From an uncultured Actinomycetes bacterium (GTDB lineage: Bacteria; Actinomycetota; Thermoleophilia; RBG-16-64-13): 64,000 nt of DNA. A program made the position numbers and the translations under genes. Positions within the stretch are counted from its first letter, which is position 1, and each line of letters begins with the position of its first letter. Shown one piece after another: positions 3,793-5,035 of the stretch. The notes under the pieces are model-generated. The model searched no databases. It was given only the letters and a program-made list of their open reading frames with translations, and was not told the origin of the DNA. Location of the stretch: positions 64,001 to 128,000 of the forward strand of contig CAWJDT010000004.1 of assembly GCA_963841735.1 (NCBI GenBank). Reading direction: 5' to 3'.

Positions 3793-4881
3793 CTAAGCCG
3801 TCTCCCGAAGCGCCTGGATCTCTTCAGCGGCCTTGATCTGCTCCAGAGCCTTCGCCTCGATCTGGCGGATGCGCTCCCGGCTTACGTTGAAACGCGAACT
3901 CACCTCGGCAAGGGTGCGAGGATGCTCGCCCTTCAGGCCGAATCGGAGCTCAACAACTTTGCGCTCGCGCTCGTCCATGGACTTGAGAACCCGGTCGAGA
4001 CTCTCCTTCGCCAGCCTGGTGGCGACCTCGTCGGCGGGGTCGGGCGTCTTCGAGTTCTCGATGAAATCGCCTAACTCGGCGTCTTCTTCGTCACCGATGG
4101 GAGTCTCGAGGGACGTAGTGCGCTGCGCGATCTTGCGCATCTCCTGCACTTCCTGAGGGTCGATACCCAGTTCGGCGGCGAGATCGTCGTCGTTGGGCTC
4201 GCGACCGGTCTCCTGCAGCAGTTTGCGCTCGGTGCGGACCATCTTGTTTATCTTCTCGATCATATGCACCGGTATGCGGATGTTGCGGTCCTGATTGGCA
4301 ATGGCCCGGGTGATGGCCTGACGGATCCACCAGGTGGCGTAGGTGGAGAACTTGTATCCCTTGCGGTAGTCGAACTTCTCCACGGCGCGGATGAGGCCTG
4401 TGTTGCCCTCTTGGATGAGGTCAAGGAGGTCCATGTCCTGGGTGTAGTAGTTTTTGGCGATAGAGATGACCAACCGCAGGTTTGACTGGATCATGCGATC
4501 TTTGGACCGCTTGTCGCCAGCCTCGATGCGCTTGGCCAGCTCGATCTCCTCGCTCTTGGAGAGGAGGGGGATCTCGCCGGCTTCCTTGAGGTACAGCCGC
4601 AATGGGTCATGAGTCACGGTCTGAATGGAGAGGTCGAGCGCAGGCTCGGTAGGCTCCAACACACCCTGGGTGACCGGGCTTTGTTCGTAGATCTCGATGG
4701 ATTGGTCGAAGAGTTGGGAGTAGAGGTCTTCGATCTCCTCCATGGCCATGTCGTATTCTTCGACCAGCGCCATGATCTCGTCACTGGTGACGTATCCGCG
4801 CTCCTGGCCGACCTGAAGAAGATCCTGCACGTCCACGATAGTGCGGACGTCGATGGTGGGGATGTCACTTTCCCTTTGCAC
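3793..4881 (-). CDS. RpoD/SigA-family sigma-70 factor, divergent paralogue (group 2-like) that retains a region 1.1
   Basis: DPLRLYLKE, NLRLVISIAK, DLIQEGN, KFSTYATWWIRQAITRAI, RERIRQIEAKAL; no neighbouring dnaG; several canonical SigA residues are changed. Confidence 0.93.
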   Translation of the reverse strand: MQRESDIPTIDVRTIVDVQDLLQVGQERGYVTSDEIMALVEEYDMAMEEIEDLYSQLFDQSIEIYEQSPVTQGVLEPTEPALDLSIQTVTHDPLRLYLKEAGEIPLLSKSEEIELAKRIEAGDKRSKDRMIQSNLRLVISIAKNYYTQDMDLLDLIQEGNTGLIRAVEKFDYRKGYKFSTYATWWIRQAITRAIANQDRNIRIPVHMIEKINKMVRTERKLLQETGREPNDDDLAAELGIDPQEVQEMRKIAQRTTSLETPIGDEEDAELGDFIENSKTPDPADEVATRLAKESLDRVLKSMDERERKVVELRFGLKGEHPRTLAEVSSRFNVSRERIRQIEAKALEQIKAAEEIQALRETA

Positions 4882-4950
4882 TGTCTTCTGCTATCCTAAC
4901 GGTAGATTTAGCATTCCTCTTGCGAACCGTCGCATACCACAAACCGCAAT

Positions 4951-4979
4951 ATTATACTCTGCGGTTGGTTACCCGTCAA
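4951..4979 (-). promoter_or_regulatory. Sigma-70 promoter P1 of the RpoD paralogue (TTGACG-N17-TATAAT); its -10 is enclosed by the inverted repeat AACCGCA-N11-TGCGGTT
   Basis: - strand reads attgacgggtaaccaaccgcagagtataat; repeat arms at 4942-4948 and 4960-4966. Confidence 0.8.
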
Positions 4980-5006
4980 TAACACGTTTCAAACCATACT
5001 CTAATT

Positions 5007-5035
5007 ATTGTACCGAACAAACGTTCGTGACACAA
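5007..5035 (-). promoter_or_regulatory. Sigma-70 promoter P2 (TTGTGT-N17-TACAAT) of the RpoD paralogue
   Basis: - strand ttgtgt-cacgaacgtttgttcgg-tacaat, with 17-nt spacing. Confidence 0.65.
5014..5027. promoter_or_regulatory. LexA operator (SOS/Cheo box) CGAAC-AAAC-GTTCG
   Basis: Exact match to the Firmicutes/Actinobacteria consensus CGAACRNRYGTTCG, lying inside the P2 spacer in an intergenic AT-rich region. Confidence 0.8.

Follow-up and report, generated by a model that had tools for sequence, protein, structure and literature searches.

The stretch of DNA analyzed here, referred to below as the window, comprises 64,000 nucleotides (nt) from an uncultured actinobacterium of the Thermoleophilia (GenBank assembly GCA_963841735.1, contig CAWJDT010000004.1, positions 64,001 to 128,000), and close to its start it carries a minus-strand gene for an RpoD/SigA-family sigma factor (3793-4881; 362 amino acids, GTG start) whose promoter region contains a candidate operator for LexA, the repressor of the SOS response. 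The product, hereafter the window sigma, spans regions 1.1-4.2, with sigma-70 regions 1.1, 1.2, 2, 3, and 4 all scoring above their Pfam cut-offs, as in the housekeeping RpoD/SigA architecture. It is not of the extracytoplasmic function (ECF, group-4) kind, as regions 1.1, 1.2, and 3 are present and the downstream genes encode PadR and HAAS-domain proteins. The window sigma belongs to no named orthologous group, all NCBIfam equivalog scores being below their cut-offs, including those of the curated RpoD models (NF006666, 413.5 vs. 572; NF004208, 421 vs. 555; TIGR02393, 330.7 vs. 354). The divergent gene on the other side of the promoter region is plsX (5204-6253), followed by rnc and smc.

The operator, CGAACAAACGTTCG at 5014-5027, is a perfect pair of palindromic half-sites (CGAAC-N4-GTTCG) of the Cheo type used by the LexA regulon of actinobacteria and Firmicutes. 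On the minus strand the elements are arranged in the order TTGTGT (5035-5030), CA, CGAACGTTTGTTCG, G, and TACAAT (5012-5007), and the two hexamers constitute the -35 and -10 elements (family consensus TTGCGn and TAnAaT) of a sigma-70-type promoter, P1, which is directed at the sigma open reading frame (ORF) and has its 17-nt spacer filled by the operator. The initial annotation had placed the palindrome within the spacer of TTGTGT-N17-TACAAT, and both the site and the spacing were confirmed at these positions. The same layout recurs in 44 distinct upstream sequences, in which the gene-orientation form of the operator, CGAACGTTTGTTCG, is near-invariant.

A search for related loci yielded 75 (L numbers below; G000 denotes the host assembly, other G numbers other genomes, and C numbers host contigs), all of them from metagenome-assembled genomes (MAGs) of Actinomycetota, Thermoleophilia, or Gaiellales, and 73 were used, L107 and L118 having no upstream DNA. 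Loci were typed by whether the product is closer to the window sigma or to a close paralog encoded by the host. The box (at most one mismatch, within 400 nt upstream) is present at 43 of 59 loci of the window-sigma type and at none of the 14 loci of the paralog type, and the 43 box-bearing loci come from 43 different assemblies, no two of the same species. Conservation upstream of orthologous sigma genes, which the initial annotation had left to be checked, was thus found. Alignment of the 44 distinct sequences (window included) by their boxes gives the consensus TTGCg..aCGAACGTTTGTTCG.TA.AaT, and the flanks, 30 nt ahead of it and ~100 nt beyond it, have almost no information content. On a FastTree phylogeny of 69 rows, which left out ten loci with an uninterrupted translation of <250 amino acids or no upstream DNA, the presence or absence of the box requires at least 5 changes, compared to a mean of 22.5 for shuffled labels. 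Several loci from long-read MAGs contain frameshifts and have long branches in this tree, which also places duplicates of the window-sigma type in some genomes.

The host encodes a single LexA (C4:291442-292053; TIGR00498, 216.4 bits vs. a cut-off of 110.95), which can be aligned over its full length with LexA proteins of solved structure. In alignment with 3k2z, its AAG, GSSM, and VKRF motifs occupy the positions of the scissile bond, the serine, and the lysine, respectively, providing the cleavage site and Ser/Lys dyad of LexA (motif roles as given in PMC2921402). The host lexA gene repeats the operator-in-spacer design of P1: its promoter is TTGTTG-GGGG-CGAACAATTGTTC-TATAAT, and a further site, CGAACGAATGTTCA, comes after it. 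Among 31 family genomes searched, 28 contain lexA, and the 150 nt upstream hold at least one site (at most one mismatch) in 28/28 loci and two sites in 20/28. The LexA of this lineage therefore uses the CGAAC-N4-GTTCG type of motif, as the initial annotation had assumed. The operator of the sigma gene is nearer consensus and less variable than the boxes of lexA itself. Its GTTT spacer (gene orientation) is also almost invariant, while the spacers of the lexA boxes vary freely, a constraint that may reflect selection for a tight site.

Similarly to lexA, other SOS genes carry the motif. When host sites outside rough gene calls and with A/T-rich spacers were surveyed, they comprised, besides the sigma operator, the lexA pair, a double box upstream of a second dnaE-type polymerase gene (C1:1578348-1582902, L127; PHP, finger, HhH, and OB domains), and a site at an OLD-family nuclease gene. 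In three genomes from three other genera (G018, G019, and G020), the perfect intergenic boxes with an A/T-rich spacer are those at the sigma gene (G018 and G020), dinB (3/3), and the PHP/second-dnaE gene (G018 and G019), and the remaining perfect boxes inspected are inside genes; the sigma site of G019 ends in A and hence is not a perfect match. The layout at all three targets is a -35 hexamer, 1-2 nt, the box, 1-2 nt, and the -10 hexamer, the same 17-nt-spacer design. The motif is accordingly found at lexA in 28/28 loci, at dinB in 3/3 genera, and at the second dnaE in two of these three genera and in the host. From these sites the conserved LexA regulon looks small, consisting of lexA, two error-prone polymerases, and the window sigma.

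Two further observations concern the boxed genes of the host. Its second dnaE is split over three overlapping frames (488, 354, and 740 amino acids), possible causes being frameshifts, misassembly, or decay to a pseudogene; a dnaE with an unbroken 1215-amino-acid frame is located at C1:1682976. At the nuclease gene (L128, C5:248310-250311), a perfect box, CGAACGTTTGTTCG at C5:250298, overlaps the -35 element and spacer of a TTGCGA-N17-TATAAT promoter facing the ORF (ATPase AAA_15 and OLD TOPRIM domains), which immediately follows a pair of SMODS cyclase genes and an S_4TM effector gene, an arrangement resembling the cyclic-oligonucleotide-based anti-phage signaling system (CBASS). This locus is possibly an SOS-gated defense nuclease.

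The window sigma is not the sole RpoD-like sigma of its host, whose genome contains five matches to sigma region 1.2, the window sigma included. Linkage of dnaG and rpoD is typical of many bacteria, though not universal, and here dnaG (C1:1195449-1196681; 415.8 bits) is directly upstream of a different sigma gene, so the absence of an adjacent dnaG noted for the window sigma holds. Another sigma (C1:1202805-1203944) is encoded 5 kb beyond the dnaG-linked one, and the close paralog (C1:1555047-1556144; 81-82% identical to the window sigma) is encoded, box-free, behind an RNA-binding-protein gene. At this and the other paralog loci (L085-L099, from a subset of genomes), the sigma gene always follows a gene for a glycine-rich RRM-type RNA-binding protein and a hairpin, and the upstream DNA contains no P1, no LexA box, and none of the downstream promoter and leader sequence described below. 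The fifth match, at C7:81400-83000, is a short RpoD of Bacteroidota-like appearance in an A+T-rich stretch, the rest of the contig having 61% G+C, and this stretch is probably contamination or evidence of a chimeric contig in the MAG.

The segments that recognize the -10 and -35 elements (FSTYATWWIRQAITRAI and RERIRQIEAKAL) are identical in the window sigma, its paralog, and the C1:1202805 sigma, and differ at one and two positions in the dnaG-linked sigma. It is in regions 1.2 and 2.3-3.0 that the window sigma departs from the other RpoD-like sigmas: the window sigma and its paralog have EAG for EIG (region 1.2) and GNTGLI for GNLGLI, as well as ANQDRNIRIP where the other two have ADQARTIRIP or ADKARTIRIP. 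The window sigma also has the lowest scores of the three family-wide RpoD-like sigmas on NF006666 (413.5 vs. 492.9 and 461.9) and TIGR02393 (330.7 vs. 345.8 and 351.1), with all three below the cut-offs. Among these three it is nonetheless the most conserved, and the dnaG-linked sigma the least. In the same set of genomes, identity to the G000 proteins is 82-96% for the window sigma, vs. 76-95% and 65-87% for the other two types; for the window sigma, the C1:1202805 type, and the dnaG-linked type, respectively, the values are 96, 95, and 87% in G009, 93, 91, and 76% in G019, 85, 81, and 68% in G020, and 84, 78, and 65% in G018. All 24 other family genomes searched have a match of at least 80% identity to the window sigma, and no ortholog was found outside the family, where the best matches in 16 genomes of other families of the class reach 49-57% and the loci concerned are nearer to the C1:1202805-type sigma (66-67% identity). 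By these comparisons the window sigma is a family-specific, strongly constrained RpoD-like paralog. A dnaG-linked sigma thus exists, as the initial annotation had anticipated in looking there for the true SigA, but given the order of conservation it cannot be assumed that this protein is the housekeeping factor and the window sigma a dispensable extra.

Promoter scanning and alignment revealed a second minus-strand promoter, P2, that the initial annotation had not noticed. It consists of TTGACG (4979-4974), 17 nt, and TATAAT (4956-4951), matches 11/12 consensus positions, lies 56 nt downstream of P1, and is free of any operator. The family form is TTGAC-N17/18-TATA(A/C)T, with a TGGACA/TACAAT variant in more distant genera, and an alignment of 55 orthologue-type loci shows TTGAC kept in most of them, box-less ones included. 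The leader predicted from P2 (4882-4945, minus strand) begins with GGTTTGCG, which follows P2 in nearly all 55 sequences with or without a box, and continues through GGTAT and GAAAGC to TAGGATAGCAG before the start codon. In 38 aligned leaders the corresponding conserved RNA blocks are GGUUUGCG, GGUAU, GAAAGC, and UAGGAUAGCAG. RNAalifold gave no convincing consensus fold for these 38 sequences (-1.2 kcal/mol), and a search of Rfam with positions 3600-5300 gave nothing relevant (lone match, E 0.82). On visual inspection there seems to be covariation in a small hairpin around GAAAGC..UAAA (AGAG/CUCU, GGG/CCU, CCCU/AGGG).

With a near-consensus, operator-free promoter downstream, the sigma gene is unlikely to be purely SOS-controlled. 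The proposal of an SOS-controlled sigma in the initial annotation therefore stands as regards the operator, LexA, and their conservation, and is qualified by P2. LexA bound at P1, ~40 nt upstream of the P2 -35 element, should not block P2, and it probably adds a damage-inducible boost on top of basal expression. In the sequence of events that we propose, a LexA dimer at the operator would exclude RNA polymerase from P1; DNA damage would lead to RecA-stimulated self-cleavage of LexA and the opening of P1; P1 transcripts would add to the basal output of P2; and the level of the window sigma, a primary-like and group-2-like factor, would rise, which would alter the balance among sigmas competing for core RNA polymerase in the SOS response. 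We consider it likely that P1 is occluded by LexA in this way and that its opening upon damage raises the sigma above the level supplied by P2. Position, conservation, and the lexA promoters lend good support to assigning the operator to LexA and the sigma gene, whereas binding, repression, induction, and a downstream regulon are what we infer from this arrangement. By analogy with the timing of the E. coli SOS response, the perfect match of the operator points to tight repression and to induction late in the response.

Several observations weigh against this interpretation. A search for sequencing runs covering positions 3700-5300 of the window listed none of RNA. The -35 hexamer of P1 is weak, TTGTGT matching 3/6 consensus positions, which is why TTGTGT-N17-TACAAT is missing from the list of the promoter scanner. 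The near-consensus P2 is kept in nearly all orthologue-type loci, box or no box, and given this promoter LexA may just modulate expression. Moreover, about ten clear orthologs with 90-94% identity (L051, L063-65, L067, L069, L071, L105, L111, and L112) have no box, indicating that LexA control is dispensable in some lineages. These ten account for most of the 16 box-less loci, together with two that retain degenerate remnants of the box at the same place (L104 and L117) and four that are uninformative (L110; L114, an N-terminally incomplete match on a contig labeled as another phylum; L119, with 49% identity; and L122, a fragment). Seven box-less orthologs form one clade of the FastTree phylogeny, in which the alignment shows a P1-like -10 element retained and other sequence in place of the operator, and in G005 and G021 the sigma operator has been lost with lexA and its boxes still present. 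Within the host, the dinB box is degenerate (2 mismatches), and recA (59609-60568 of the window, plus strand) has no box within 400 nt upstream, its best site having 4 mismatches; on this evidence any damage control of recA is not exerted through this operator. The recA gene appears to follow another gene closely. Lastly, perfect boxes are not enriched genome-wide: the host assembly has 8 perfect 14-mers in 2,821,636 bases, the window has 2 sites with at most one mismatch compared to a shuffle mean of 2.67, and perfect-box counts in three relatives are 8, 7, and 16, compared to 11, 11, and 6 for a reversed control pattern. As the bare count of the motif is not above chance, its significance rests on position and conservation.

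Such counts are what one would expect if the palindrome were a chance match, and plsX, which is transcribed away from the sigma gene here and at most related loci, could be its target, as the initial annotation had allowed, or the site could serve a regulator other than LexA. We regard these explanations as very improbable. Ten box-bearing loci (L077-L084, L108, and L109) have no plsX, so the operator belongs to the sigma gene; in at least 8 of the ten a co-directional ABC-exporter ORF ends shortly before the box, the ORF call being less clear in L078 and L109. Conversely, nine orthologue loci have kept plsX and lost the box, the hexamers conserved around the box are oriented as a promoter for the sigma gene alone, and the same motif occurs at lexA, dinB, and the second dnaE as described above.

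Granting a LexA-gated P1 that supplements P2, the consequences for transcription can be envisaged in two ways. In a hierarchical SOS cascade, the sigma released from LexA control would direct RNA polymerase to distinct promoters and so drive a late-induced, second tier of damage genes. The strong conservation of the window sigma, its lineage-specific changes in otherwise invariant motifs (EAG/EIG, GNTGLI/GNLGLI, and ANQDRNIRIP/ADQARTIRIP), the tighter and less variable operator relative to those of lexA, and the very small size of the remaining core LexA regulon would all fit such a cascade, but the -10 and -35 recognition helices are the same as in the paralog and the C1:1202805 sigma, and P2 is predicted to give LexA-independent expression. 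In addition, a tandem pair of PafBC-like WYL-domain genes on C7, which presumably may control repair genes as in other actinobacteria, could drive those genes instead. We therefore hold the cascade as a tentative proposal. The window sigma might instead be the working housekeeping factor, with P1 topping up its supply during damage and promoter selectivity unchanged, and here too its conservation can be cited, along with the full region 1.1-4.2 architecture, the constitutive-looking, near-consensus P2, and the conserved leader. Against that role, it scores lowest of the three sigmas on the RpoD equivalog models, its gene is duplicated in some genomes, and beyond the family the best matches of 49-57% come from loci closer to the C1:1202805 type, all of which makes it an unlikely explanation. 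The WYL pair sits on the same C7 contig as the Bacteroidota-like RpoD.

Full-text searches of a literature with few subscription-journal papers gave no example of a primary-like sigma factor among the conserved core members of a LexA regulon, and no account of a LexA operator at the gene for such a factor. The classical regulon of actinobacteria and Firmicutes (lexA, dinB, and dnaE2; M. tuberculosis LexA ChIP-seq study, PMC3381160) resembles the one described here in its motif, in lexA autoregulation, in its translesion and error-prone polymerases, and in its small size, and in both recA and repair genes may have another regulator. The closest precedent found is sigH-rshA of Corynebacterium glutamicum, with four promoters, one of which, P4, overlaps a putative SOS box at which the authors infer a block by LexA (PMC3489674). 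In both cases an actinobacterial sigma gene has several promoters and a SigA-type one overlaps a Cheo-type SOS box, with P4 inferred to be released on DNA damage and the other sigH promoters to be LexA-independent (PMC3489674). SigH differs in being an ECF sigma with an anti-sigma partner, and its box overlaps the -10 element (PMC3489674), whereas the window sigma is primary-like (regions 1.1-4.2), its operator fills the spacer, and the arrangement is conserved across 43 species; in both the LexA site is a predicted one. SigG of Mycobacterium tuberculosis is likewise an actinobacterial sigma induced by DNA damage, but we rejected it as a precedent for LexA wiring because it is an ECF sigma that the consulted portion of PMC3776920 places in a RecA-independent response. 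Among matches to sigma and hrd in its main text, a LexA regulon study of Streptomyces venezuelae names no sigma gene, though its supplementary tables could hold one, and the portions consulted of LexA studies in Synechocystis and Prochlorococcus report no LexA sites at group-2 sigma genes.

As to the kind of sigma factor involved, the window sigma is RpoD-like, has near-identical recognition helices, coexists with another RpoD-like sigma, and presumably increases under stress and vies with other sigmas for core enzyme, in all of which it resembles the group-2 sigmas. Group-2 factors are primary-like and stress-induced; examples are RpoS in E. coli, SigB in mycobacteria, and HrdA-D in Streptomyces. 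To our knowledge, LexA-driven induction has not been reported for any of these. Set beside these systems, the candidate wiring is unusual in its target, a conserved sigma gene that bears an SOS operator.

SOS regulons are usually described as flat, with one repressor acting on genes for repair, mutagenesis, and division. With a primary-like sigma gene under a conserved LexA operator, the response would gain a second tier of regulation, and DNA damage would be coupled to the global choice of promoters in an uncultured but widespread actinobacterial lineage known from soils, sediments, and anaerobic reactors. It is possible, although we would put it no higher than a conjecture that leans toward doubtful, that this whole Thermoleophilia family has placed a primary-like sigma under LexA beside lexA itself and the mutagenic polymerases, and that severe damage brings about a sigma switch and with it a two-tier SOS cascade. 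Stress-induced mutagenesis in E. coli needs SOS and RpoS jointly, and a two-tier cascade, if true, would be analogous to that requirement but hard-wired in one step. The locus would also offer a clean case of dual-promoter logic, with a basal P2 and a damage-gated P1, for which the sister clades and the paralog without the operator would serve as natural controls.

At its 3′ end the sigma gene is followed, after the stop codon, by a terminator-like hairpin with a 12-bp G+C stem (3711-3738, minus strand), and the 106-nt stretch around it has a folding energy of -48.2 kcal/mol (z -3.97). The T tail of this hairpin is weak and the consensus terminator scan does not list it. Further downstream on the minus strand (1056-3613), a PadR regulator gene is followed by two genes for HAAS-domain membrane proteins, a neighborhood shared by 5 of the 73 related loci.

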